DNA of 63,979 nt, the filler included, from an uncultured Methanosarcinales archaeon (lineage in GTDB: Archaea > Nanobdellota > Nanobdellia > Woesearchaeales > CAZKBD01), in the NCBI GenBank assembly GCA_964550945.1. It is 6 parts of 6 records of this genome, joined end to end, with 100 filler letters (N's around TTAATTAATTAA, not from the genome) between each part and the next. Parts side by side here need not be neighbours in the genome. Positions count along the whole stretch, not along the records: positions 24,671 to 36,665 come from CAZKBD010000057.1; 5 more parts are not named here. The stretch is one strand, 5' to 3'. A program made the translations under genes and the position numbers. Positions 12,302 to 59,935 of the stretch are shown here, piece by piece (the stretch's first letter is position 1; every line of letters starts with the position of its first letter). The notes under the pieces were generated by a model, which saw only the letters and a list, made by a program, of their open reading frames with translations, searched no databases and was not told the DNA's origin.

Positions 12302-12401
12302 NNNNNNNNNNNNNNNNNNNNNNNNNNNNNNNNNNNNNNNNNNNNTTAATTAATTAANNNNNNNNNNNNNNNNNNNNNNNNNNNNNNNNNNNNNNNNNNN
12401 N
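12302..12401. other. Contig linker (assembly artefact)
   Basis: N run with TTAATTAATTAA all-frame stop. Confidence 0.99.
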
Positions 12402-24570: not shown

Positions 24571-24670
24571 NNNNNNNNNNNNNNNNNNNNNNNNNNNNNN
24601 NNNNNNNNNNNNNNTTAATTAATTAANNNNNNNNNNNNNNNNNNNNNNNNNNNNNNNNNNNNNNNNNNNN
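24571..24670. other. Contig linker (assembly artefact)
   Basis: N run with TTAATTAATTAA. Confidence 0.99.
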
Positions 24671-24805
24671 TATACATCAAAAATCAGGGGGTGCTTACAG
24701 AGGAGAAACGCAAAAGTTTACGTTTTTTAAGCCTTACCATCAGGAACAGAGATTATAAAAAACACAACCATTTCAGTAAGCTTTTTATGGTTTGCATCAT
24801 TTGAT

Positions 24806-26728
24806 ATGGTAATGCAAAAGCCAGAGCTGTTATTGCCTGCAGGAAATGTTGAATGCTTAAGAGCAGCTGTTGCAAATGGAGCTGATGCTGTTTATCTTGG
24901 GCTAAATAGGTTTAATGCCCGCATTTCTGCAGAGAACTTTAATGAAAAAAACCTGTTTAGCGCTATTGAATTCTGCCACAAACACAATGTGAAAGCTTAT
25001 GCAGCATTAAATACTCTTGTTAAGAACAATGAGCTTAAAGAATATTTCTCTTTGATGGATCTAGCGTACCAAGCAAAGGCTGATGCTGTAATTATTCAGG
25101 ATTCTTGCTTTATTCCTATTATCCAAAAGAATTTTCCTGGCTTGAAGATTCATCTCTCAACTCAGGCAACAGTAACAAATAAGTATTCTGTCCCAAAAGG
25201 AGTTGATAGGGTTGTTCTTGCCAGAGAGCTTTCTTATGATGAAGTAAAAGAGATGTCTAAAGAGCTTAATACAGAGGCATTTGTGCATGGGGCATTGTGT
25301 TTTTCTTACAGCGGCCAATGCATCTTTAGCTCTATGGTTGGAGGCAGAAGCGGCAATAGAGGATGTTGCGCACAGCCTTGCAGGAGAAGATATAACAATA
25401 AATATGCATTAAGCACAATGGATCTGTGCTTGCTTGAAAAGATCCCATTTCTGATTGAAGCTGGCGTTGCATCTTTCAAGATAGAAGGCAGGCTTAGGTC
25501 CCCATTATATACGGCTACTGCAGCAAGAATTTACAGAAAGTATATTGATGGGTATTTTGAGAAGAAAAAAATTGATGTTGAAGAAAAAGATATCGATGAT
25601 TTAAAGATTGCCTTTAACCGCGAATTCACGCAAGGGTTTATGTTTAATAACTCTATTGTTGACAGCAAAGCTCCTATGAACAGGGGATTGTTTATTGGAA
25701 TAATAAAACAAAAAAAATTGTTGCTAAAAAAGAAATTAAAATTGGGTGATGGGATCAGCTTATGGGAAAAGGATCATATTTCTGGTTTTACAGTAAAGAG
25801 AATAAAGAAAGAAGGAGATTATGTTAATGAAGCATCTATTGGGGATATTGTTGAGCTGGATTTGCCAAAATCAGTTGAATACGCCCAAGTGTATAAGACA
25901 TCTTCAGTTGACTTAAACATCAATCTTGGAGACGGATTAAAATTTGTGAGGTTTAACTGGAATAAAAGAGACATATCTATTCCACATTTTCCTGGATCTC
26001 CAAATTTGGATAGCCCAAAACTTTTTGTTAAGGCTTATAACAAAAAATCTGCTATTGCTGCTGACAAGGCTAAGGCTGATGTTATCTATTATGATCTGCT
26101 GAATAGCGATTGTGAAGAGGTTAAGCAATTAGTTAAGCATGCAAAGTTTTTTGTGTTTACTCCGAGGATATTATCTTCTGCCCAGGCTGAAGAATGCGCA
26201 AAAAAGATTAAAGAGATAAATCCAGAGGGAGTGCTTATTGCTAATGCTGGGGTGATATCATTCTTAAAAGGCTTGTTTGAGCTGCATTTTGATTACTCTT
26301 TGAACTGCTTTAATGATGTGAATATCTCCTGTTTCAAAGGCATGCCTATTATTTCCCCTGAGCTCAACTTTGATGAGATTATTGGATTAAAAAATAAGGG
26401 GGTTATTGCGTTTATTCATGGCGATATTGTTTTAATGACTACAAAAGAGCCCTTAAAAGCTCCTGAGCTTGTTGATGATGATGGCAGGCATTTCCGCGTA
26501 AGAAAACGGCATCATTTGTTCGAAATCCTAAATGAAAGCCAGCTTGGACTTTTTACGAAAGTTAAAGATTATAATGGTAAAGGGATTAAGTATTTTTACA
26601 TTGATCTTGAGAAGGATGTTGGCAAATTTGTTCGCATTTACCATTCAATCCTTAAAGGAAAGGACTTTGATGACAAAAAGATAAAGAAAGGATATACTCT
26701 GGGCCATTTCCAGCGCGGAGTGGAGTAG
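24806..26728 (+). CDS. Peptidase U32 family Fe-S protein (RlhA/TrhP-like RNA hydroxylase)
   Basis: PELLLPAG, GADAVYLG, HLSTQ, HGALCFSYSGQC..NRGCCAQPCR, FKIEGR. Confidence 0.92.
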   Translation: MVMQKPELLLPAGNVECLRAAVANGADAVYLGLNRFNARISAENFNEKNLFSAIEFCHKHNVKAYAALNTLVKNNELKEYFSLMDLAYQAKADAVIIQDSCFIPIIQKNFPGLKIHLSTQATVTNKYSVPKGVDRVVLARELSYDEVKEMSKELNTEAFVHGALCFSYSGQCIFSSMVGGRSGNRGCCAQPCRRRYNNKYALSTMDLCLLEKIPFLIEAGVASFKIEGRLRSPLYTATAARIYRKYIDGYFEKKKIDVEEKDIDDLKIAFNREFTQGFMFNNSIVDSKAPMNRGLFIGIIKQKKLLLKKKLKLGDGISLWEKDHISGFTVKRIKKEGDYVNEASIGDIVELDLPKSVEYAQVYKTSSVDLNINLGDGLKFVRFNWNKRDISIPHFPGSPNLDSPKLFVKAYNKKSAIAADKAKADVIYYDLLNSDCEEVKQLVKHAKFFVFTPRILSSAQAEECAKKIKEINPEGVLIANAGVISFLKGLFELHFDYSLNCFNDVNISCFKGMPIISPELNFDEIIGLKNKGVIAFIHGDIVLMTTKEPLKAPELVDDDGRHFRVRKRHHLFEILNESQLGLFTKVKDYNGKGIKYFYIDLEKDVGKFVRIYHSILKGKDFDDKKIKKGYTLGHFQRGVE

Positions 26729-26736
26729 TATTCTAG

Positions 26737-27201
26737 TTATAATCTATTAATTAATAAATATCCACTTAAAAACAGAAAAGCAAAAAATAATATATAATCA
26801 ACAATACCATTAACAGCAAAAAAGCCGCGAATTCTTTTTTTAGTAAGTGGATATAGAGGCATGATGCCTTGTTTGTTAAGCGCATCTAAGGATAAGTGAG
26901 AGCTATAGCCTAGAATAACTGCAATACCTAAAAGCAATTGATGCATTAAAACAAAAACTAAAAAAAGTGTTGCTGGAATAAATATAGAATGGATAAAATG
27001 CCTGTGCTGGAATAAGAATTTTATTAAATATCGAAGAAAGCCTAGTTCTCTGCTGATTTTTGATTTGTGATTGTCAATGTCTGGAAAAATGCTGAAGAAT
27101 AGGGCCAGCAAAATAAAAATGATAGGAGGGGTTATGGAAAAGTGGTTTATGGCAGCTAACCCCAGAAAAAATCCAAACATCAAATGTGTTTTAAACATCA
27201 T
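26737..27201 (-). CDS. YdjM-like membrane metal-dependent hydrolase
   Basis: TH, PDID, HRHFIHS, SHLSLD, G...LYP. Confidence 0.88.
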   Translation of the reverse strand: MMFKTHLMFGFFLGLAAINHFSITPPIIFILLALFFSIFPDIDNHKSKISRELGFLRYLIKFLFQHRHFIHSIFIPATLFLVFVLMHQLLLGIAVILGYSSHLSLDALNKQGIMPLYPLTKKRIRGFFAVNGIVDYILFFAFLFLSGYLLINRL

Positions 27202-27296
27202 TTTAATCAATATACCACTTATTGTTTACGGAGTATTATTCACTTACGAGAGAGCGCGGTTGGTTAATTATTTTTTTATTATTACTAACTCAAGAA

Positions 27297-28301
27297 CTAA
27301 TCATTAGTCACTTTCTGAATCTCTTCATCCAGCTTCTTAATCTCTTCATCAGGATTGGGGTTTATGTCTACGCTTTGGGTTATAAATTCCAGCCGGTCAA
27401 ACATCTCGTTTTTGTTTACCCTTCCAACCAGCTTGATGATATTCCCCAACAGCTCTGTTTTTACGTCCTCAAATTTCTCAGGATTGTCCTTATACTGCAT
27501 AATCTGGCTGGCATTTTTATTGATGACTTTTAAAGCGTGGTCGCCAAAGAAAACGGTCCTTATATTATCTGAGCCATCATCCAAAAATAGATTCAAAACA
27601 AAAGAGTATTTTGGCTCTACTTTGTTATGCTCTTCACAAAAAAATGCTCCATCCCTTAACCTTGCTCTTTTGCCGCACTCAGAGCATACCTCAAAGAAGC
27701 GAGGCTCAAAAACCCTTACAATAGTGCCCATCAGCTCTACATTGGTGTCTTTTTCGTTCAGCTCTGATATCTTTTTTCTTGAAACCTCAAACCTTATTGT
27801 TCCAACTTCTTCTCCAGGAGGATTTTGGATTATCTTGCTCCGTTCATTCATGTGTATCTCTAAAATGCCCTTATTATCCCTTACATATCCTCCAAGAATC
27901 TTGACAATCATATTTTCATTAAGGGCTCTTATAAGGTCTGCCTGGTCGCCCCATAAAACCACCCTCATAGTGCCGGTTGAATCTCCCAAAACAAAGGAAG
28001 CGACTTTGCCAGCCCTGTCCTGGGTTATGAATTCCCTGATTTCATAAAGCTTTAATATCCTGCCAACTGTCTCGACATTCCTCATCCCTGACAATATGTT
28101 TTTTATCTGCAGTTTTCCAGAAAACTTATCAAGAATCTTAATGCCTAATTCATTTGCAATTATATGGGCAGCTCCTTCTTTAGAAATCAATCCAGCAAGC
28201 TGCTTCATCTTCTGTTGAATGCGGCTGTCAATCTCTGAGTCAGTAAGGCCTGATTTTTCCTTGATTATGGCAATTAATTCTGATTGTGGAATCTTAAACA
28301 T
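27297..28301 (-). CDS. rpa: Replication protein A (OB folds plus Zn finger)
   Basis: GDSTGTMRVVLW, CSECGK..CEEH, LDDGSDNIRTVFF. Confidence 0.9.
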   Translation of the reverse strand: MFKIPQSELIAIIKEKSGLTDSEIDSRIQQKMKQLAGLISKEGAAHIIANELGIKILDKFSGKLQIKNILSGMRNVETVGRILKLYEIREFITQDRAGKVASFVLGDSTGTMRVVLWGDQADLIRALNENMIVKILGGYVRDNKGILEIHMNERSKIIQNPPGEEVGTIRFEVSRKKISELNEKDTNVELMGTIVRVFEPRFFEVCSECGKRARLRDGAFFCEEHNKVEPKYSFVLNLFLDDGSDNIRTVFFGDHALKVINKNASQIMQYKDNPEKFEDVKTELLGNIIKLVGRVNKNEMFDRLEFITQSVDINPNPDEEIKKLDEEIQKVTND

Positions 28302-28418
28302 CTAAACACCCCTGAAAATTAATTAGATAGTTTATTTATATACTTTTGTATTGTCAAGAACAACTATTCACAGAATTGTGAATGGTGCTGTCATTTGCCG
28401 CTTTAAATGGGCGTTATA

Positions 28419-30476
28419 TCAGCCCTTGTTAAGCTTTCCCTGGTCAACATCAATTGATGTTGATGGTATGCTCCTATCAGTGACTGAATTCATTGAAAAT
28501 GAGCCGCCTTTATTATCAGTGATAGAAACCTCTTTGATGATCAAGCCAAGCTCTTTTAGCTTGTTAAATTCTATGTCGGGATTATTTAATTTGTCTTTTG
28601 CCAAGATAAAGAAATAATAGTTATAAGTGTCTGAGCCTGGGCTGCAATGAGGGAGATTTGCAGTGATTTTTACTGTTGGATTGCCTGGCAAGATCTCTTT
28701 TTTATCTAAAGGTATTGTTGTTGGATCTGCGCAGCCGTTATAGTACAGGTTATAAAGGTTTAAATCTGATAGCGCGTAGTTTGCAACTAGGTTAGAGGTT
28801 ACCTCAGGCCATGAGAATATAAGATTGTCTTTATCCAGGCGAACATCAAAATTGACAAAAGCGGGCCCTAAATCATCTTCTGATTTTCCTTCAATGAGAG
28901 CAAGTTTTTGATCTTGATCTATATTGTTTATCTCATTACCTGCTTTGTCAACAGCTGTAACAGCAAAATAATAATTTTTGTCTTCTATACTGCTAAGGAT
29001 GTAAAACGCCTCTTTGGAATCTTCAACATAGTACAGCTGATTGTTCTTTATCAGCTTGTTTTCATCAAAAACGCATCTTATCTCTTCTTTATTGTCAATT
29101 TTAACTTTTTTTAATTCACAGCTATCCAAACTGATCGAGCTAAAAGCTAGTAGATTATCTTCATCATATTTAATCTCTTTTTTAGCTATAATTGCGTCTA
29201 AATTTATTGCCTCAATGCTCTTGTCTTTGAAATTGGTTTCTGAATAATAAATGACATATTTATCAACATCTTCTGCAGTGCTTTTTTTCCATTTTAAGAT
29301 CACAGAATGCTCAGCGTTTTTATTATCTTCAACAGAAAGCCCTTCTATTGGTGGTGGGGGTAAGTCCTCGATATACATTGCAAACTTTATTGCAACTGGC
29401 TTTTTTTCGAGTTTCTTCTCAGCTTCATCATAATAAGGGATTTCTTTATTGCCTAAAACGCAAAAACCAAATAACCTCTCGCTATTTATTTGGCCCTTAT
29501 CTGCCTGGGTTATTTCCTGGCATTTGTTTTCTTTCCAGATGCAATTCAAGCTGCAAGGGTCTTGCATGCAATATTTTTCATTTATATACTCTCCACATTT
29601 TGCACTGGCTGGACAATGATCGCACCTATCAAATTTGTATTCTCCCCATAACCCCCATGTCTTGCCAAACCATGCAACATAAGGCAGCTCTCCTTGAACA
29701 AGATTCTTATTTTTGTCCAAACATTCCTTCTCCTCTTTAGGGAATATTGGGCAAAAATTAACTGCCCAGCCTTCAATCTTGCTTGCTTCTTTTTTTACGC
29801 ATGGCAATAAGTCAATTGTATTTGAGCATATCGCATTAATTGTGATTGCCTGCGCTTTTATTAATTCATAGACATCTAAATCGTAATCGACTTGCTGAAC
29901 AAAAGAGGGCTTTACAGCATATTCTGATATTAGCACGCCAATGCCCCTCTCTTCTGGCTTGTAATAAATATATTTGTATAAAGGCAGGGTAGCAAATCCG
30001 CTAATCTTTAGATTGCCTTCAATCAAGAAATCATAATTATCCTCATAAAAACCGCTTTCCCCTGATTCAGAAGCATAGATTTTTGAATATCTGTTGATAT
30101 CCTCTTTTATTAATTTTGAGAAATCATCCTTAATGCCTTTGGGGTAACAGTTTTTTATCTTCTTTTTTCCGTCTGCAATATCAAGGATTTGCCACAAAGT
30201 ATATCCCTTGTAGTTTCCACATTCGGGCTGCCCATAAAACCCTCCTTTTTCTCCTAAGCTGAATAATGATAGGTGTATAGCATATTTTGCTGCCTGGTCT
30301 ATGTAAAAAAGAGCCCCTTCAAGCTGCTGCGAAGCTTCCAGATATTTCAGCTGCAGCTCACCTACATATTTTGGCTGGCCATCAAGATCGGCCAATAATG
30401 AGCTTACATAGAATACAAATAAGCCTGCAAAAAAACTTATTATCAAAAAAATATATAAATTTGCTTTTTTATTCAT
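28419..30476 (-). CDS. Pilin-like protein (class III signal) with Cys-rich and FN3-like domains
   Basis: MNKKA|NLYIFLII; PPPPIEGL..LKW..YVIYY..YYFAVTAVDKAGNE. Confidence 0.75.
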   Translation of the reverse strand: MNKKANLYIFLIISFFAGLFVFYVSSLLADLDGQPKYVGELQLKYLEASQQLEGALFYIDQAAKYAIHLSLFSLGEKGGFYGQPECGNYKGYTLWQILDIADGKKKIKNCYPKGIKDDFSKLIKEDINRYSKIYASESGESGFYEDNYDFLIEGNLKISGFATLPLYKYIYYKPEERGIGVLISEYAVKPSFVQQVDYDLDVYELIKAQAITINAICSNTIDLLPCVKKEASKIEGWAVNFCPIFPKEEKECLDKNKNLVQGELPYVAWFGKTWGLWGEYKFDRCDHCPASAKCGEYINEKYCMQDPCSLNCIWKENKCQEITQADKGQINSERLFGFCVLGNKEIPYYDEAEKKLEKKPVAIKFAMYIEDLPPPPIEGLSVEDNKNAEHSVILKWKKSTAEDVDKYVIYYSETNFKDKSIEAINLDAIIAKKEIKYDEDNLLAFSSISLDSCELKKVKIDNKEEIRCVFDENKLIKNNQLYYVEDSKEAFYILSSIEDKNYYFAVTAVDKAGNEINNIDQDQKLALIEGKSEDDLGPAFVNFDVRLDKDNLIFSWPEVTSNLVANYALSDLNLYNLYYNGCADPTTIPLDKKEILPGNPTVKITANLPHCSPGSDTYNYYFFILAKDKLNNPDIEFNKLKELGLIIKEVSITDNKGGSFSMNSVTDRSIPSTSIDVDQGKLNKG

Positions 30477-30477
30477 A

Positions 30478-30972
30478 TTAACCCCAGGTTGTTCTCAATA
30501 AAAACAGATTTACAGCAATTTTATCCATGTTTATTAAGGGGATCTGGACTTTTGCTATAGGTATCTTAACAGTATCCTTATTTTTCCCGATAGATGTGCT
30601 GCCGCCAAGAGCTTTTGTTTTTCCATTAGGCAAATAAAGCTCTAATCTCCAGTTTTTTGAGCCATAAAGTTCATTAAGGTAATTTTCAGCTTTAGCGTCA
30701 AAATCCCCAAAATCATCATTTAGGTAAGATTCTGCTATCAAATCAGCAATATTTTTATCATCAGCAATAGGTGTTTTCAGGAAGTATAGTAAATTTTGGT
30801 TAGCATCAATGTTTACTTTGGCTTGGGTTATATCCATTTGGACGTCTCTTTTAGCAGCGAAATTGGTTACAGTCAGAATCAAGATGAATACAACAAAAAC
30901 TGCCATCGCCAATAACAAATAAAGAAAGTCGTCTACTGCTACTGCTTTTTTTGATTTGAAAAGCTTATACAT
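30478..30972 (-). CDS. Pilin-like protein (class III signal)
   Basis: KSKKA|VAVDD followed by a hydrophobic helix. Confidence 0.7.
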   Translation of the reverse strand: MYKLFKSKKAVAVDDFLYLLLAMAVFVVFILILTVTNFAAKRDVQMDITQAKVNIDANQNLLYFLKTPIADDKNIADLIAESYLNDDFGDFDAKAENYLNELYGSKNWRLELYLPNGKTKALGGSTSIGKNKDTVKIPIAKVQIPLINMDKIAVNLFLLRTTWG

Positions 30973-31447
30973 CCCACACCTCTATGTAGAGATTTGCCTG
31001 CTGCAATTTATTATCCTTGTATACAAGAACCTTTTTCAGCTCTCTTTCTTGAAATCCAAAATTCTGGCCCCAATTTGGAGTTTTTACTTCTCTTTTGGTG
31101 TTTGCATCTATCTCTAAAGTCAATCTGAAAGCCATAACCTTTTTTTCAGATTCTAATGTTATATTAAAGCAATTTTTCATAATTTTATCTTTATTCTCAT
31201 CGCTGAATTTGCTCCAATCCAGAATTCCGGGATACGCCCTTAGATTATTGTTATACGCAAAACATTCGCCTGAATTAAAGAATCTTTGGATAAAAACATA
31301 TCTTTCCAAGCCTGGAGGTATTTCAGCTGAGTTTGATGAGTATGAGTTGACTATGACTAAAAAAAGGATAAACAAACCAGTAATGAGTATACCAAATATT
31401 ACATAAAATGGCGCTTTATCTGCTGTGATGGTAGCTTTTTTATCCAT
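30965..31447 (-). CDS. Pilin-like protein (class III signal)
   Basis: MDKKA|TITAD followed by a hydrophobic helix; overlaps both neighbours. Confidence 0.7.
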   Translation of the reverse strand: MDKKATITADKAPFYVIFGILITGLFILFLVIVNSYSSNSAEIPPGLERYVFIQRFFNSGECFAYNNNLRAYPGILDWSKFSDENKDKIMKNCFNITLESEKKVMAFRLTLEIDANTKREVKTPNWGQNFGFQERELKKVLVYKDNKLQQANLYIEVWDV

Positions 31448-32408
31448 AATCTTCTAAACCTTTGAAAATAGAGATTCCGATTGAGCTTATTTCAGTTGGA
31501 TCAGCAAGCATATTTTTCTCTTTTTCAACCTGCATATTGCCTGCTTCAATTAAAACTGAGATTTTGCTTGTTCTTTGAGCTGCATCTGGGATTATGGTTG
31601 CTCCATCAATATTCAATTCGCTATTGTTTAGTATCTTATTTAGGATTACGCAGGCTAATTTTTCGCTATAAGGGTTGTTAGAATAGTAAATCTTTAATGT
31701 GTTCTTTTTATGCACATAATTTCCTGCATGAATCGCTATGATCATATCAGCCTTATCTGCCAAATCATCAATCTTGTACTGAGGCAACCTTACTGAATTA
31801 TCCCCAATATTGCCTGCTCTGGAATAATAAATAGTTGCGATTTTTCCCTGCGCTTGTGTAGAAAATGATAAGGCAATAGAGCTGGTTATTGCAGACTCGT
31901 CAATGCTGTTGACATTTAATCCAGTACTATCGCCATGGCCTGCATCAATCAATATACTCTTGGGAATTGCTTTTTTTTCTGGGTTAGGGCATTTGAGCTT
32001 GTTTGGTTCAGGCAGCTTGTCTGTATTAATTTCGATATCTCCTGCTTTTCCAAAAACAACAACTTCAGGATTTTTTAGCTCTAGATCCAAGCCTTTTTCG
32101 CCAATCCTGACAAAACTGTACTCTACTGCTAAAGGGTCTCCTATTGACTTAGACACCTTGATGTTGTCATTTTTGTAAGATAATAGAAATTTTGAGATGT
32201 CTGTAGGATACATTATGTATCCATTCCCGCTTCTGGAATAGAGGCTGTTGATCAATACTGAGTGGTCTCTGGCAATAAACGCTTTTTGGAATATCTCACC
32301 GCTGCCATAAGCTTTGCCTGCCTGAAGAAATAAGAAGAACACCAAGCTTGCGACAACTAATTCTACCAAGACCATTACAGTAAGGTCCACATTGCCTCTT
32401 TTTTTCAT
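31440..32408 (-). CDS. Pilin-like protein fused to an N-acetylmuramoyl-L-alanine amidase (Amidase_3)-like domain
   Basis: MKKRG|NVDL plus TM; ILIDAGHG (H158), E171, ADMIIAIHA (H227), SVLIEAGN (E288). Confidence 0.82.
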   Translation of the reverse strand: MKKRGNVDLTVMVLVELVVASLVFFLFLQAGKAYGSGEIFQKAFIARDHSVLINSLYSRSGNGYIMYPTDISKFLLSYKNDNIKVSKSIGDPLAVEYSFVRIGEKGLDLELKNPEVVVFGKAGDIEINTDKLPEPNKLKCPNPEKKAIPKSILIDAGHGDSTGLNVNSIDESAITSSIALSFSTQAQGKIATIYYSRAGNIGDNSVRLPQYKIDDLADKADMIIAIHAGNYVHKKNTLKIYYSNNPYSEKLACVILNKILNNSELNIDGATIIPDAAQRTSKISVLIEAGNMQVEKEKNMLADPTEISSIGISIFKGLEDYG

Positions 32409-32448
32409 TAGGTAAATATATTAGAGAATTAGTATATATGCTTTTTGC

Positions 32449-33501
32449 TTAGGCCTGCTGCATGCAATAATTATCCTTGATATCTTTAGCTATTTTAATT
32501 ACTGCGTTTTTTTCATATTCATGCGGTTTTCCATCACAGCTGTATATTTTGTCAGGGGCGCTTTCAATATTCTCGTAATTATCGTCTTTTTTCATCTGCA
32601 GTGTTAATACGCTGTCATCTCCATGCTTGACTTTAAAGCCTGTTGAAGGAAAATCCAGCATAAATTCATTTTTGCAGTCAACATTTTTTATGCAGTCGCC
32701 AAAATTAGCTATAAAAGCATTGAATATCTCGATGGATTTTTCTTTGTTTTTTTCTTCTATTTCCTGGTCAATCTCTTTTTTCGTTATATCTGACAGGCAA
32801 GGAGAGTTTAGGCAGATTATAACCTTTCCTTGATAGTTTTCCAAGTAAATCCCTCTTGTTCTATCTGAATTTAAGTATTGAGGATACTCTGTTGATCTTT
32901 TAGCTATGCCTCTTTCCAAAACAAAGCCATGAGAGCAGCTAAACTCATCATTTGGCTTTTCTTCAAGATCGCATTGGAAGTTTATATCTGCATCCACATC
33001 TGCGCAGTAAAATTTAGACTCTTCTTCTGGCTTATAGTATATCTGCAAGCTTTTGTACACTTCTTTATCTAAATCATCATCCCTGCCGCCTAATCCTGCC
33101 TCAGTTGTTGAATCAATTTTTCCGTATTTGTCAAATTTTGGCTTTGTGACTAAACACACGCAAGATTTAGATTTATCTTTTATACATGCTGGAAAATCGC
33201 TTCTTCTAAATATGAATATGACCTGGCCAGCAGGATAAGGCAGCCGATATCTGCTGACAGAATAATCATCATTGCTTGAAAAGCCAACTATTGCCGTATC
33301 TTGGTCCATACTCAAAGATAGGCTTCTAATTTCGCCGCTTACTTTCATCTCATCAATAAGATTTGTTAATTTGTTATAATCATCATAGCCCTTATCACCC
33401 AGCCTAAAGAGCTTGCTTCCTATATAGAAAGCGCTGCCTATGAATACAATCGCTATTATCAGCCTGATCAGAAACTCCAGCATAATTGCTTTTTTGTTCA
33501 T
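32449..33501 (-). CDS. Pilin-like protein (class III signal), Cys-containing
   Basis: MNKKA|IMLEFLIRLIIAIV. Confidence 0.75.
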   Translation of the reverse strand: MNKKAIMLEFLIRLIIAIVFIGSAFYIGSKLFRLGDKGYDDYNKLTNLIDEMKVSGEIRSLSLSMDQDTAIVGFSSNDDYSVSRYRLPYPAGQVIFIFRRSDFPACIKDKSKSCVCLVTKPKFDKYGKIDSTTEAGLGGRDDDLDKEVYKSLQIYYKPEEESKFYCADVDADINFQCDLEEKPNDEFSCSHGFVLERGIAKRSTEYPQYLNSDRTRGIYLENYQGKVIICLNSPCLSDITKKEIDQEIEEKNKEKSIEIFNAFIANFGDCIKNVDCKNEFMLDFPSTGFKVKHGDDSVLTLQMKKDDNYENIESAPDKIYSCDGKPHEYEKNAVIKIAKDIKDNYCMQQA

Positions 33502-33502
33502 A

Positions 33503-33766
33503 TTACTTCTTTTTCATTTTATTGTCGCATTGATCTTTTAATGTTGTGCATGGTGGCTCTTGATCAATGTCACAAGGGCATTTATCAAACATATTAGCAA
33601 CATCATCCCCATCAAAATCACCTAGGGCGCTAATCTTCTTGTCTAATTCGCTGCCTTCTTTTCTAAACATGCCTGTGAACACTGCTATAAGTATTATTGC
33701 AGCAGTTATCAGAATAAGGGCTATTATTATCACATTCATCGGCAGTTCAGTAGCTTTTTTATTCAT
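33503..33766 (-). CDS. Small pilin-like protein with TSP type-3-like Ca-binding motif
   Basis: MNKKA|TELPMNVIIIALILI; DFDGDDVANMFDKCP. Confidence 0.8.
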   Translation of the reverse strand: MNKKATELPMNVIIIALILITAAIILIAVFTGMFRKEGSELDKKISALGDFDGDDVANMFDKCPCDIDQEPPCTTLKDQCDNKMKKK

Positions 33767-33777
33767 TTTGTATCACC

Positions 33778-34971
33778 TCATGAACATTCTTGGACAGCTC
33801 CAGATAATCCCAGCCAGTCGCTGTCAAACGACCATAGTGATTTATTGTCTTTGTTTACTAAAAATAATGCATCGTGGATCTTTATTGCGCCGCTAATATC
33901 TTGAATAGGGTATTGCGAATAAATGTTATAAGGATCTATTAAGAAAATTCCTGGAGAAAGGTCATTATAGCCATCAAAAAAGGCATCTAAGTCGTCTTGA
34001 TTACCTATGCTCACCATAGGATAAGCGCTGACTTGGTCTTCCTTAACTTGGGTAGTTTGATAATAAAGGGCTACCTGCCCATTTTCTCTAAAAACAACAT
34101 AATAATCCCTTTCAAGCTTGTTTGTATCAAATCTGAATGTTTTTTTACAAAGGCTTGTTCCAAGATTTGTTCCTTTAATAAAACTCAAAAGCCTGTCAAA
34201 TTCAGAAATCGCTTCTTTATGTGGATCTTCATTTTCTTTTCCGCATAAAGGCAATCCAAGCAGCCTGTTTTTTTGGTACAATTCCCAAATGAAATCATCG
34301 TCGAGCCCATACCCATTATAATTGATGACATCGTTGGTTGTAAAAAAGCACAAATGAATTATATCCCTGTTATAGATAAGGCTGATCTCCTGCTCTCCAT
34401 CTTTTACTTTTAATCCATTATCCTCTAAACTGTAATCTTCTTTATCATCAGCTTTTAAGTCATAAACATTGGAAATAACAATCTTATCAACAGCTTTGAA
34501 GTCTGTCAGCTCGTTATTTTTGCTGCCATCCAAATAATTATCATAAAAAAGTTTTGCGCCGTCACCTGCAACTATGCAAGGAATTTTATTTGGCACAACC
34601 TTGCTGTCATACTCTGCTCCCTGGTCATCCAATACCCTAAATAGGATATCGTCGCCTTGCTTTTCTATAGCTATGCTGAATTTGCCATTAATGGCTTCTA
34701 ATTCAGGATATACCAGAAGACACTGGTCATTGCCTGGATTTTCAAACACATTAACAAGGGCTGTGAAATTATCGCTGACTTGCTTTGAAAAAGATGGCTC
34801 TGGCTCTTTATACTCTGAGTCTTTTATAAGCCAATGCCCTAGGTCTTTAATAGGCTCTGTAACTTGATTAAGCCATCCTTTTGGAGCAAAGAAAGCAAGC
34901 ATGGCCAAGAATCCTATAAGTATAAAAAGAATCGCTACTAATTTTTCAATTGGGAATGTTCCTTTTTTCAT
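33778..34971 (-). CDS. Pilin-like protein (class III signal)
   Basis: MKKG|TFPIEKLVAILFILI (E at +5). Confidence 0.75.
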   Translation of the reverse strand: MKKGTFPIEKLVAILFILIGFLAMLAFFAPKGWLNQVTEPIKDLGHWLIKDSEYKEPEPSFSKQVSDNFTALVNVFENPGNDQCLLVYPELEAINGKFSIAIEKQGDDILFRVLDDQGAEYDSKVVPNKIPCIVAGDGAKLFYDNYLDGSKNNELTDFKAVDKIVISNVYDLKADDKEDYSLEDNGLKVKDGEQEISLIYNRDIIHLCFFTTNDVINYNGYGLDDDFIWELYQKNRLLGLPLCGKENEDPHKEAISEFDRLLSFIKGTNLGTSLCKKTFRFDTNKLERDYYVVFRENGQVALYYQTTQVKEDQVSAYPMVSIGNQDDLDAFFDGYNDLSPGIFLIDPYNIYSQYPIQDISGAIKIHDALFLVNKDNKSLWSFDSDWLGLSGAVQECS

Positions 34972-34979
34972 TTGTTAAG

Positions 34980-35007
34980 ATACCCCGCCCCTTGGGGCGA
35001 TTGGGAT
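34980..35007. repeat. GC-rich hairpin inside the pilin operon (possible IS200/IS605-like palindrome)
   Basis: ATACCC-CGCCCC-TT-GGGGCG-ATTGGGAT. Confidence 0.4.
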
Positions 35008-35009
35008 TT

Positions 35010-35153
35010 TTATTTCCACCTAAAAAAATCACGTATTATATTTGCCGCATCTTCCCTTAATCCTGTAAACCAGATAATAACCCAGACTAAGAGTATTAAC
35101 AGTAATAAAATCCCTGCCAGCTGAGCAAAAGTCCAGTCTGCTTTCTTGTTCAT
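35010..35153 (-). CDS. Minimal 47-aa pilin-like peptide (not in the ORF track)
   Basis: MNKKA|DWTFAQLAGILLLLILLVWVIIWFTGLREDAANIIRDFFRWK*; 2 nt after the upstream stop. Confidence 0.75.
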   Translation of the reverse strand: MNKKADWTFAQLAGILLLLILLVWVIIWFTGLREDAANIIRDFFRWK

Positions 35154-35155
35154 TT

Positions 35156-36319
35156 TCATTGAATATCCAGCTCCATTACACATTTGTCTGACACTGCATT
35201 AAGAGGAGAGATTAGGACTACATTGATGTCTTTGTTTTCAGTTAGATAGGTTGCACCTGTAACTGCCCCACCTATAAAACCCGCTCCGGCTATTCCTAGC
35301 GCTATTGGTATTGTACAAAGGCCTGAAGTAGCTATTAGGCATACTCCCACCGCTGCGCCGCCTGCTCCAATAAGCCCTCCAACTGGAGCGCCCTTTGTTA
35401 GGCTATCCCACCCATAATTTGGATCAGGACTGATAAGACTGATTGAGTAAGTCTCTTCCTGAGCTTTGAATTCTGTTCCAGGAGTGTATAAAACAGCTCC
35501 TTTTCCATCATCATTATAGTTTTGAACATAACCAAAATAACTGTAAAAATGCTCTTGCTTAATGCAGCAGCTTTCTCCTTTAACAGCGCATTTCCAGCCA
35601 TCATATTTTATTGAATACTCTTCTGGGCTCTTTTCTTTGCATGTGCTGCTGCCTAGAGCTATACAAGCGCCACCTTTATTGCTGCATTTATCATTTCTTT
35701 TTGTGGATATGCAGCATTTTTTTGGCTTTTCGCATTTGTTTGAGCTTACTTCTTTGGCAGAAATTTGCGATCCTTCGCTAAGCTTGCTGCAGTCATCAGC
35801 GCAAAAGCCCCCTCCAACTGCTGCGCAATTATTGCTTCCATCTTTTACTTTGTAAGCAGTTTCTCGCATGTATTGGGCTAAGTCTGCGCCTGTAAAACTA
35901 TCAATTCCTTTTTTTATATTGAAAGAATAACAGTTAAAACAAGGCTCTTTTCCTCCCGGCAATATCTGCCTAAACATATTTCTTTCTGCTCCTTCCAGCC
36001 ACATCCACCAGCATCTTGCAGTCATATCGCTAATCTCAGCCATTGCTCCCTGCTTAGTTTGAGGATAGTCCTCGCCTGGAACTTCCTTTTCAATGTTCCT
36101 GCATGTTCTTGGTGCTATTTCTTTGAAATGCACACCAGTGGCTTGCTGCTCCTTATCCTTGCCCCACAGCCTTATTGCATTAAATCCGTAACATAGAGCT
36201 TCTGCACTTGCGTCATTCGCTTTTGAAAAAAAGATTTTCCACAGCCCGAGTATAAGAAATCCTGAAATGATCAGTATTGCAATACCAATGAGCATAGCCA
36301 TTTGCGCTTTTTTTTTCAT
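35156..36319 (-). CDS. Pilin-like protein with two defensin-like six-Cys modules and a C-terminal Gly-rich hydrophobic segment
   Basis: MKKKA|QMAML; C..GGFC..C..C..CC twice; GGLIGAGGAAVG..GAGFIGGAVTG. Confidence 0.75.
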   Translation of the reverse strand: MKKKAQMAMLIGIAILIISGFLILGLWKIFFSKANDASAEALCYGFNAIRLWGKDKEQQATGVHFKEIAPRTCRNIEKEVPGEDYPQTKQGAMAEISDMTARCWWMWLEGAERNMFRQILPGGKEPCFNCYSFNIKKGIDSFTGADLAQYMRETAYKVKDGSNNCAAVGGGFCADDCSKLSEGSQISAKEVSSNKCEKPKKCCISTKRNDKCSNKGGACIALGSSTCKEKSPEEYSIKYDGWKCAVKGESCCIKQEHFYSYFGYVQNYNDDGKGAVLYTPGTEFKAQEETYSISLISPDPNYGWDSLTKGAPVGGLIGAGGAAVGVCLIATSGLCTIPIALGIAGAGFIGGAVTGATYLTENKDINVVLISPLNAVSDKCVMELDIQ

Positions 36320-36441
36320 GGAAGCAACACTTTTTTAGCGTTTATCACAATTAATATCAAAATTCCGGCTAATGCGACTATTAAAAATATTTTCAAAAAC
36401 CATTCTGGTACAAGGTTAGATTCACTTTCCTCATCAGCCAT
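36316..36441 (-). CDS. 41-aa single-TM protein heading the pilin operon (not in the ORF track)
   Basis: MADEESESNLVPEWFLKIFLIVALAGILILIVINAKKVLLP*; ATGA overlap with the next gene; TTTATATA upstream. Confidence 0.7.
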   Translation of the reverse strand: MADEESESNLVPEWFLKIFLIVALAGILILIVINAKKVLLP

Positions 36442-36514
36442 ATCAAATAATTTTTTAGATTAGAGCATATATAAATCTTTTGAATTTATTTTTTTAGTAT
36501 TATTAACTTAAGAA

Positions 36515-36664
36515 CTACGTATCTTCCAAAATCTTGACGCAGCAATACTGGGGTGATTTGCAGTTGGTGTTGATCACTTCTGTCTCATACGCATCATTAC
36601 AGCTGCTCTTGCATTCACCGCCCCTAACTTTACAGTCTGCAATGCCAATGCCCCAAAAACAGCG
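36515..36664 (-). CDS. 3' end of a Cys-rich (defensin-like module) protein, truncated by the contig end
   Basis: ..IADCKVRGGECKSSCNDAYETEVINTNCKSPQYCCVKILEDT*. Confidence 0.7.
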   Translation of the reverse strand, partial: RCFWGIGIADCKVRGGECKSSCNDAYETEVINTNCKSPQYCCVKILEDT

Positions 36665-36665
36665 C

Positions 36666-36765
36666 NNNNNNNNNNNNNNNNNNNNNNNNNNNNNNNNNNN
36701 NNNNNNNNNTTAATTAATTAANNNNNNNNNNNNNNNNNNNNNNNNNNNNNNNNNNNNNNNNNNNN
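36666..36765. other. Contig linker (assembly artefact)
   Basis: N run with TTAATTAATTAA. Confidence 0.99.
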
Positions 36766-48300: not shown

Positions 48301-48400
48301 NNNNNNNNNNNNNNNNNNNNNNNNNNNNNNNNNNNNNNNNNNNNTTAATTAATTAANNNNNNNNNNNNNNNNNNNNNNNNNNNNNNNNNNNNNNNNNNNN
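48301..48400. other. Contig linker (assembly artefact)
   Basis: N run with TTAATTAATTAA. Confidence 0.99.
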
Positions 48401-59835: not shown

Positions 59836-59935
59836 NNNNNNNNNNNNNNNNNNNNNNNNNNNNNNNNNNNNNNNNNNNNTTAATTAATTAANNNNNNNNN
59901 NNNNNNNNNNNNNNNNNNNNNNNNNNNNNNNNNNN
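59836..59935. other. Contig linker (assembly artefact)
   Basis: N run with TTAATTAATTAA. Confidence 0.99.

Follow-up and report, generated by a model that had tools for sequence, protein, structure and literature searches.

A prepilin-like protein with a compact Amidase_3 domain in a conserved surface-protein cluster of a Woesearchaeota-type archaeon

The stretch of DNA analyzed here, which we call the window, comprises 63,979 nucleotides from the genome of an uncultured archaeon of the Woesearchaeales (GCA_964550945.1; 1.97 Mb in 177 contigs, 92% complete). The window consists of six contigs (C55, C56, C57, C58, C59, and C125) joined by runs of N at positions 12302–12401, 24571–24670, 36666–36765, 48301–48400, and 59836–59935, and within it the gene context of our subject is valid only in positions 24671–36665 (C57). 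That contig carries, on the minus strand, a gene (31440..32408) for a protein of 322 amino acids (aa) in which, according to the list of open reading frames (ORFs), Pfam, and an AlphaFold model, a prepilin-like head and a pilin-like module are joined through a linker to an Amidase_3 domain. From sequence and hydropathy, residues 1–29 (32322..32408) contain a class III-like signal, MKKRG, with a putative cleavage site after G5, and a hydrophobic helix; in the models, residues 30–130 (32019..32321) form the remainder of that long helix, as far as residue 58, on a beta sheet (63–128), which together constitute the pilin-like globular module. Residues 131–150 (31959..32018) are the linker, with a cysteine at position 140, and residues 152–319 (31452..31955) the Amidase_3 domain, recognized by Pfam, Foldseek, and a profile run against the PDB in a short form without a regulatory insertion.

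The Pfam profile Amidase_3 (PF01520) covers residues 152–319 with its positions 1–173 of 174 at an E-value of 1.3e-13 and with 51.8 bits (cut-off 27), which sequence match is far beyond chance. The best NCBIfam row was the CwlD equivalog, whose 39 bits are so far below the 221-bit cut-off that the protein is not a CwlD. The motifs ILIDAGHG, IDES, MIIAIHAGN, and SVLIEAGN can be read directly in the protein, and alignments assign to them, respectively, the first zinc ligand H158 (codon 31935..31937, reading CAT), the second zinc ligand E171 (31896..31898), the third zinc ligand H227 (31728..31730), and the catalytic glutamate E288 (31545..31547), all on the minus strand. A profile built from 58 family members places these four residues opposite the GHGG, E, SIH, and LxE motifs of the solved amidases 5j72, 4rn7, and 7rag; phmmer with the single target sequence found no chain among the PDB sequences, whereas the family profile did. 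With the modeled C-terminal domain, Foldseek returned 46 chains at E ≤ 0.001, the majority from the Amidase_3 family; among them were AmiC2 of Nostoc (5emi; E 6.8e-11, template-modeling (TM) score 0.79 on the target, root-mean-square deviation (rmsd) 2.7), CwlV (1jwq; TM 0.79), and CwlD (7rag), the E-values being about 1e-10 for 5emi, 7rag, and 1jwq.

In Escherichia coli AmiA the zinc ligands are His65, Glu80, and His133, and residues 151–194 form an autoinhibitory regulatory domain of 44 residues (PMC10268282). In the protein of the window, the 61 residues between H227 and E288 are modeled as no more than a helix flanked by two strands, an interval too small to accommodate that autoinhibitory domain. 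A regulated enzyme of the AmiA type, with a LytM activator, was thus considered and rejected, the regulatory domain being absent, although the genome does have M23-domain proteins. Pfam recognized Amidase_3 alone in the protein, and no peptidoglycan-binding domain. The preliminary description of this DNA had announced an intact-looking Amidase_3 domain with an H/E/H plus E set, and this held: the profile is matched from end to end above its curated cut-off, the four residues stand at the zinc-binding and catalytic columns, and the model matches 5emi and 1jwq. Judged by these sequence features, the amidase of this genome is probably active.

At the opposite end of the protein, MKKRG (residues 1–5) stands directly before the hydrophobic helix, for which Kyte–Doolittle windows start at residues 5–17, and this arrangement is that of a class III leader by FlaFind-type rules, in which a few basic residues closing with [KR][GA] come directly before a hydrophobic helix. 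The AlphaFold model of the whole protein, built on a 58-row family alignment, has a mean predicted local distance difference test (pLDDT) of 93.9 and shows before the amidase a single long helix (4–58), kinked at residue 37 and packed on a sheet of strands 63–128; residues 1–148 modeled alone reproduce the same helix-on-sheet layout (pLDDT 91.1). What had been described as a spacer of some 120 aa is actually a folded domain, while the prepilin-like nature ascribed to the head is upheld by the motif itself and by the leader residues kept across the relatives. When the head module was compared with 48,161 chains by VIA-align, type IV pilins or pseudopilins—including GspI (3ci0), PilA4 (6xxd), EpsI (2ret), and the modular minor pilin PilB (7b7p)—filled 9 of the 11 top rows, at Z-scores of 3.5–4.3, a range common by chance. 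In the ESM Atlas, the module retrieved only clusters of Woesearchaeota or Nanobdellota without a protein name, at 0.85. Membership among the pilins is thus left between a fitting topology and a weak fold match, and we treat it as a reasonable working analogy. A complex prediction between residues 30–148 of the head and residues 34–160 of the 160-aa protein encoded downstream scored 0.00 against a mark of 0.32, which outcome weighs neither way on binding.

Eight genes follow one another in the same direction on the minus strand (28419–36319), separated by gaps of 1–184 bases or overlapping by 8, and the amidase gene is number five. Upstream lie gene 1 (35156..36319; 387 aa, 20 Cys, MKKKA plus helix) and gene 2 (33778..34971; 397 aa, MKKG plus helix), both with orthologues in the syntenic loci described below, then gene 3 (33503..33766), for a small pilin-like protein of 87 aa of which relatives have two or three more tandem copies upstream, and gene 4 (32449..33501; 350 aa, 12 Cys, MNKKA plus helix). 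Downstream, gene 6 (30965..31447; 160 aa, MDKKA plus helix) shares 8 bases with the amidase gene and another 8 with gene 7 (30478..30972; 164 aa, SKKA plus helix), after which comes gene 8 (28419..30476; 685 aa, 18 Cys). A [KR][GA] leader followed by a single N-terminal hydrophobic helix was found, by sequence and hydropathy, in all eight products. Apart from a weak fn3 match in gene 8, the seven other products belong to no Pfam or NCBIfam family. The contig ends 346 bases upstream of gene 1.

The gene for replication factor A (RPA) lies three genes downstream of the amidase gene on the same contig, and most of the related loci anchored on RPA come from records labeled as Candidatus Woesearchaeota, Nanoarchaeota, or Nanoarchaeia, other labels occurring on some of the automatic assemblies; these two findings sustain the assignment of the DNA to a DPANN archaeon. 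The synteny that the preliminary description proposed to look for does recur throughout a whole order: 16 loci belonging to other families of that order retain the succession of the cluster genes, with RPA and a YdjM-like gene after it. The pair formed by RPA and the YdjM-like membrane protein (26737–28301 in the window, minus strand) adjoins the cluster end in nearly all the relatives examined (16 + 60 loci). Of the 80 RPA-anchored loci drawn from named species, a family member lies upstream of RPA in 60, and 17 of the 20 that have none extend less than 4 kb in that direction. Two relatives have contigs long enough to show the cluster running on upstream, with tandem small pilin-like genes, more prepilin-like genes, and giant surface proteins of 900–4269 aa.

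A word-indexed protein search returned only 4 relatives of the amidase-bearing protein. At E ≤ 0.001 an exhaustive profile search yielded 691 representatives, a number that falls to 265 at E ≤ 1e-10; most match end to end, with lengths of 300–370 aa. In a profile search of one genome per family of the same order, our own genome included, the family was present in 52 of 61, nearly always once in each. We aligned 136 sequences of 250–400 aa, that is, the protein of the window and 135 of 152 listed relatives, the other 17—shorter head-only or longer forms—having been left out. In this alignment K3 is found in 123 sequences, R or K at position 4 in 126, and G or A at position 5 in 120, in 39 of which last set Q comes right after; the pilin-like module (residues 30–130) is the most conserved part of the family. 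C140 and C253, which both are nearly invariant in alignment A2, occur in 126 and 125 of the 136 sequences, and a disulfide between them is possible to judge by this conservation. As to the catalytic residues, H158 is kept in 51, E171 in 88, H227 in 53, and E288 in 108 sequences, and 38 of the 136 keep all four.

Other murein hydrolases occur in the same cluster of other species. A Pfam scan of 148 + 138 + 37 ORFs from the syntenic loci revealed, in the slot orthologous to the 685-aa gene 8 and at about residues 200–350, a murein hydrolase domain that differs by species: SLT in L037, L041 (the same contig as L083), L065, L079, L080, L129, and L131; Peptidase_M23 in L038, L047, L106, L127, and L134; Amidase_2 in L049, L052, and L128; Glucosaminidase in L051, and also in an upstream slot of L050; VanY/M15 in nine loci; and M15_3 in three. 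The 685-aa protein of the window shares an N-terminal part (about 95–170 residues over two comparisons) and a C-terminal fn3-like region with an M23-bearing orthologue, and the N-terminal part with an SLT-bearing one; its middle is a Cys-rich segment in which Pfam recognized no domain, and the ESM Atlas gave no usable match for residues 150–380. Because the swapped enzyme families cut different bonds and would have only bacterial murein in common, we read the cluster as murein-directed. The bacterial murein target suggested in the preliminary description has thereby gained strong, if indirect, support from SLT, M23, Amidase_2, glucosaminidase, and VanY/M15 domains borne by prepilin-like proteins of one and the same cluster. 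Two further domains were each seen in a single relative: a GDSL/SGNH hydrolase domain where the window has its 350-aa gene (L049:8188–9504, minus strand), and a Fic domain in a cluster-adjacent protein (L090:5038–5946, plus strand).

The prepilin peptidase, the assembly ATPase, and the platform protein are all present in this genome, none of them in cis to the cluster: Peptidase_A24 matched one gene, at 51 bits, and there are four matches to the ATPase family T2SSE and four to T2SSF. Two type IV filament loci (C38:2281–10003 and C27:7005–14892) each contain one ATPase gene, two platform-like genes, and pilin-like genes. The heads of the pilins of these two loci read KEG/QISIEY and KA/QAATEY, which we take to resemble the EppA/PibD-type archaeal pilins. 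A 676-aa protein on contig C44 (L141:382–2412, minus strand) combines a Sec-type signal peptide with PG_binding_1 and Peptidase_M23, and two more M23-domain proteins are encoded on C2 (4358–7114, plus strand; 918 aa) and on C3 (L142:1288–1878); SLT found no match in this genome. The 918-aa protein seems, by eye, to lack the usual metal-binding motifs, and has a Cys-rich QDPC motif in common with the 685-aa protein of the cluster. Whether the region of C2 that encodes it could be the upstream half that the cluster lacks was considered, and this was ruled out, the neighboring genes being unrelated to those of the cluster.

With a slight leaning in its favor, we propose that the product of 31440..32408 is a two-module surface protein whose prepilin-type head would place a compact Amidase_3 domain on a filament, from which this domain would act on the wall of a contacted bacterium. 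We infer both the display on a filament and the enzyme activity from the sequence features described above. In the mechanism that we envisage, the single A24-type prepilin peptidase of the genome would trim the head after G5, and one of the two ATPase/platform pairs would then add the subunit, as a minor-pilin-like constituent of low abundance, to a structure—either type-IV-filament-like or a short pseudopilus—built from at least seven other prepilin-like products of the operon. The amidase, facing outward, would cut N-acetylmuramoyl-L-alanine (MurNAc-L-Ala) bonds in the murein of the bacterium touched. More tentatively, and with doubts prevailing, the whole cluster might be conceived as a type-IV-filament-derived contact organelle having interchangeable murein-hydrolase "warheads" on minor pilin-like subunits, that is, as a pilus-borne cell-wall drill.

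Several results weigh against the filament-borne amidase so proposed. With respect to the head, the pilin fold match is weak, Z being at most 4.4 in VIA-align while chance rows get 4–5; a Foldseek search of the isolated head module had no hit within the threshold of 0.001 (E ≥ 0.2); no curated pilin hidden Markov model (HMM) of Pfam or NCBIfam matches the protein or its seven cluster neighbors; and the residue at position +1 is here an N, which follows a two-residue insertion, where the relatives commonly have Q. With respect to the cluster, no gene for an ATPase, a platform protein, or a peptidase lies in cis, either here or in the two relatives whose cluster is complete, so that the display on a pilus inferred in the preliminary description was not borne out by fold match or gene context. 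Moreover, 36 of the 60 syntenic loci lack a recognized live murein hydrolase between the amidase slot and RPA. With respect to the enzyme, at least one catalytic residue has been lost in 98 of the 136 aligned sequences, and 33 of the 60 syntenic orthologues are head-only proteins of 130–199 aa without an amidase domain; the other 27 have an amidase-like domain, which is intact in only 3.

With its amidases mostly missing or degenerate, the cluster would work without one in most species; and the head-only forms, together with the scarcity of intact amidases, point to a family whose conserved core is the pilin-like head, with the amidase as an optional module. By the sequences compared, then, the amidase is across the family an optional, often dead or deleted accessory. 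The term "attack tool," one of the roles suggested in the preliminary description, may therefore apply at best to a minority of lineages, this genome among them, but not to the family at large, given the numbers of degenerate and deleted domains. A downstream hydrolase was found in 18 of the 33 head-only loci vs. 4 of the 27 amidase-like loci (Fisher p 0.003, with related genomes that are not independent).

The same losses would be accounted for if the protein were a pseudoenzyme, in which circumstance the amidase fold would serve as a structural or murein- or glycan-binding, lectin-like head and the intact tetrad of the window would be a remnant not yet decayed. Such an explanation, which we consider unlikely though deserving of attention, finds backing in the 14 sequences of 136 that have none of the four residues; in the degenerate state of the next three relatives (P0002, P0003, and P0004, at 55–39% identity) beyond the intact pair formed by the protein of the window and its nearest relative, P0001; and in the retention of the fold and of the conserved Cys pair even in dead copies. 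On a FastTree tree, moreover, no fewer than 23 changes are required to explain the intact state, and a minimum of 10 independent switches even when well-supported branches alone are counted, which changes we read as repeated losses because a regain of four residues is implausible. Opposed to this explanation are the copies with the intact HEHE set, which persist over branches of about 0.4–1 changes per site and include a clade of 6. Besides, with the four catalytic columns excluded, intact pairs are 29% identical in the amidase domain and degenerate pairs 24%—a difference seen in every identity bin, and to be taken as a trend and not as a test since the pairs are not independent—while the identity of the head is equal (24%) in the two sets; this pattern is compatible with purifying selection for catalysis in copies that have an intact site. 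Finally, no other hydrolase module is recognized in the cluster of the window, so that the amidase may be its only one.

According to a further alternative, the N-terminus would be an uncleaved signal anchor and the protein a plain membrane-anchored ectoenzyme that scavenges murein fragments, such as amino sugars and peptides, with no filament involved. The lack of a pilin HMM match, the weak fold match, and the absence of assembly genes in cis speak for such an anchor, as does the presence of the membrane-tethered Amidase_3 enzymes CwlD and LytH among the best fold matches; in addition, the relatives with small genomes (0.6–2.7 Mb) likely depend on scavenging. A simple anchor, however, needs no [KR][KR][GA] before its helix, which motif is present in 120 of the 136 sequences, its counterpart being found in all the operon products; nor would one expect of it a helix-on-sheet module better conserved than the enzyme, and persisting alone in 33 of the 60 loci, or the tandem small pilin-like genes in the cluster of relatives. 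We consequently assign a low probability to this possibility and keep the filament-borne amidase as the preferred interpretation.

That the enzyme might have a target other than murein appears very improbable to us. The substrate would in that event be either the archaeon's own envelope, opened for the passage of an apparatus, or the pseudomurein of a methanogen host. The trans-envelope machines of bacteria often bring a wall hydrolase of their own, which precedent favors the former version, and a syntrophy between Woesearchaeota and methanogens, proposed in PMC9723730, the latter. On the contrary, only one Mur-ligase-like gene, with the M and C domains only, is present in this 92%-complete genome, which argues against a wall of the archaeon's own and led us to reject own-wall remodeling; and SLT, glucosaminidase, the VanY/M15 D-Ala-D-Ala peptidases, and M23 would seem to share only bacterial murein as a substrate. 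Finally, a bacterial gene mis-binned or mis-assembled into the archaeal genome, as one might suspect from an Amidase_3 that in control genomes matched bacteria only (8 genomes, all bacterial), has practically no likelihood, and bacterial contamination was rejected on synteny and GC, for the gene shares a 12-kb contig with the archaeal replication factor A, the GC content of that contig is 36.7% vs. 36.6% in the genome, and 60 of the 80 related loci keep this gene in the same arrangement next to RPA.

The archaeon studied here is small and probably a symbiont. The Woesearchaeota are among the most widespread DPANN groups, and the finding gives a handle on their partners: a cluster that repeatedly recruits murein enzymes constitutes a testable lead to archaea that touch, open, or feed on bacteria. 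If the cluster were indeed a cell-wall drill, much of this large lineage would live on or prey on bacteria and not on archaea. The proposed protein would also extend the modular pilins, shown in bacteria with adhesion modules, both to the archaea and to enzymatic modules, while the coexistence of live, dead, and deleted amidases in one orthologous slot offers a natural experiment on how an enzyme turns into a structural part.

On the remaining contigs of the window, we observed a giant adhesin-like surface protein of 2027 aa with He_PIG, Big_9, cadherin-like, and PKD domains (C58, 41969–48052, plus strand); an unusual single polypeptide of 1076 aa in which FAD_binding_4 and FAD-oxidase_C are fused with DAO of the glycerol-3-phosphate-dehydrogenase type and DAO_C (C55, 7264–10494, plus strand); and a nucleotidyltransferase (Polbeta/NTP_transf_2) gene overlapping by 4 bases that of a HepT-like ribonuclease, arranged as is usual for an MNT-HepT toxin-antitoxin pair (C56, 16559–17565, plus strand).

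Among the known enzymes, AmiA, AmiB, and AmiC of E. coli share with the protein of the window the catalytic-domain family and the zinc ligands (PMC10268282), and differ from it by their 44-residue regulatory domain, made of a blocking and an interaction helix, and by AMIN or twin-arginine (Tat) features, none of which it has; the fold matches to AmiA and AmiB in Foldseek were poorer (TM 0.55–0.69). A closer likeness is found with the short, unregulated Amidase_3 enzymes—AmiC2 of Nostoc (5emi), CwlV of Paenibacillus (1jwq), and the Clostridioides difficile amidase 4rn7—at TM 0.76–0.79 and rmsd 2.7–3.3, which enzymes have the same H/E/H plus E set in a domain of about 170–180 aa without a blocking helix. 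The identity to them is, for its part, only 18–23%, and they carry a signal peptide or a wall-binding domain where the archaeal protein has its prepilin-like N-terminal partner.

In bacteria, modular pilins have already been published (PMC8179133). The one described in that paper, PilB of Streptococcus sanguinis (7b7p), likewise joins a pilin module to a C-terminal functional module, and its structure matched our head at Z 4.1; PilB, however, is a bacterial protein with an adhesion (vWA-like) module whose incorporation into pili was established by experiment, whereas here the second module is an enzyme and incorporation is deduced. The class III-type heads of the family, with Q frequent at +1 (39 of 120), recall the archaeal type IV filaments exemplified by the Epd pili ("system 1") of Methanococcus maripaludis (PMC13705601). 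As in the Epd-type systems, an ATPase, a platform protein, and an A24 peptidase are present in the genome; unlike in them, the cluster has no ATPase or platform gene, far more pilin-like genes, and, in relatives, giant surface proteins. Epd pilins are processed by EppA/PibD. According to the 2026 census, archaeal type IV filament systems are scarce in DPANN archaea (PMC13705601).

Lytic transglycosylases of family GH23 have been reported in some Woesearchaeota (PMC9723730), and modular hydrolases with wall-binding domains in 175 of 3,706 archaeal genomes, prominently in Nanoarchaeota (PMC12352652), of which latter kind the 676-aa protein on contig C44 would be a secreted example. The texts of these two papers do not contain the word "pilin"; that of PMC9723730 has no "amidase," and that of PMC12352652 has neither "Amidase_3" nor "PF01520" and a single generic "amidase." We found no published description of a pilin–amidase fusion or of this cluster, although the supplements of PMC12352652 and PMC13705601 may list such genes. 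In common with the hydrolases of both reports, the protein of the window has a murein-cutting domain in a murein-free archaeon, which circumstance was read there as an interaction with or an attack on bacteria; yet those enzymes are large, secreted or modular, and wall-binding, whereas this protein lacks a wall-binding domain, bears a prepilin-like head, and is encoded in a pilin-like operon. Thus, murein hydrolases of DPANN archaea and modular pilins of bacteria are known already, and what would be new is a putative pilin-like murein amidase within a conserved surface cluster.

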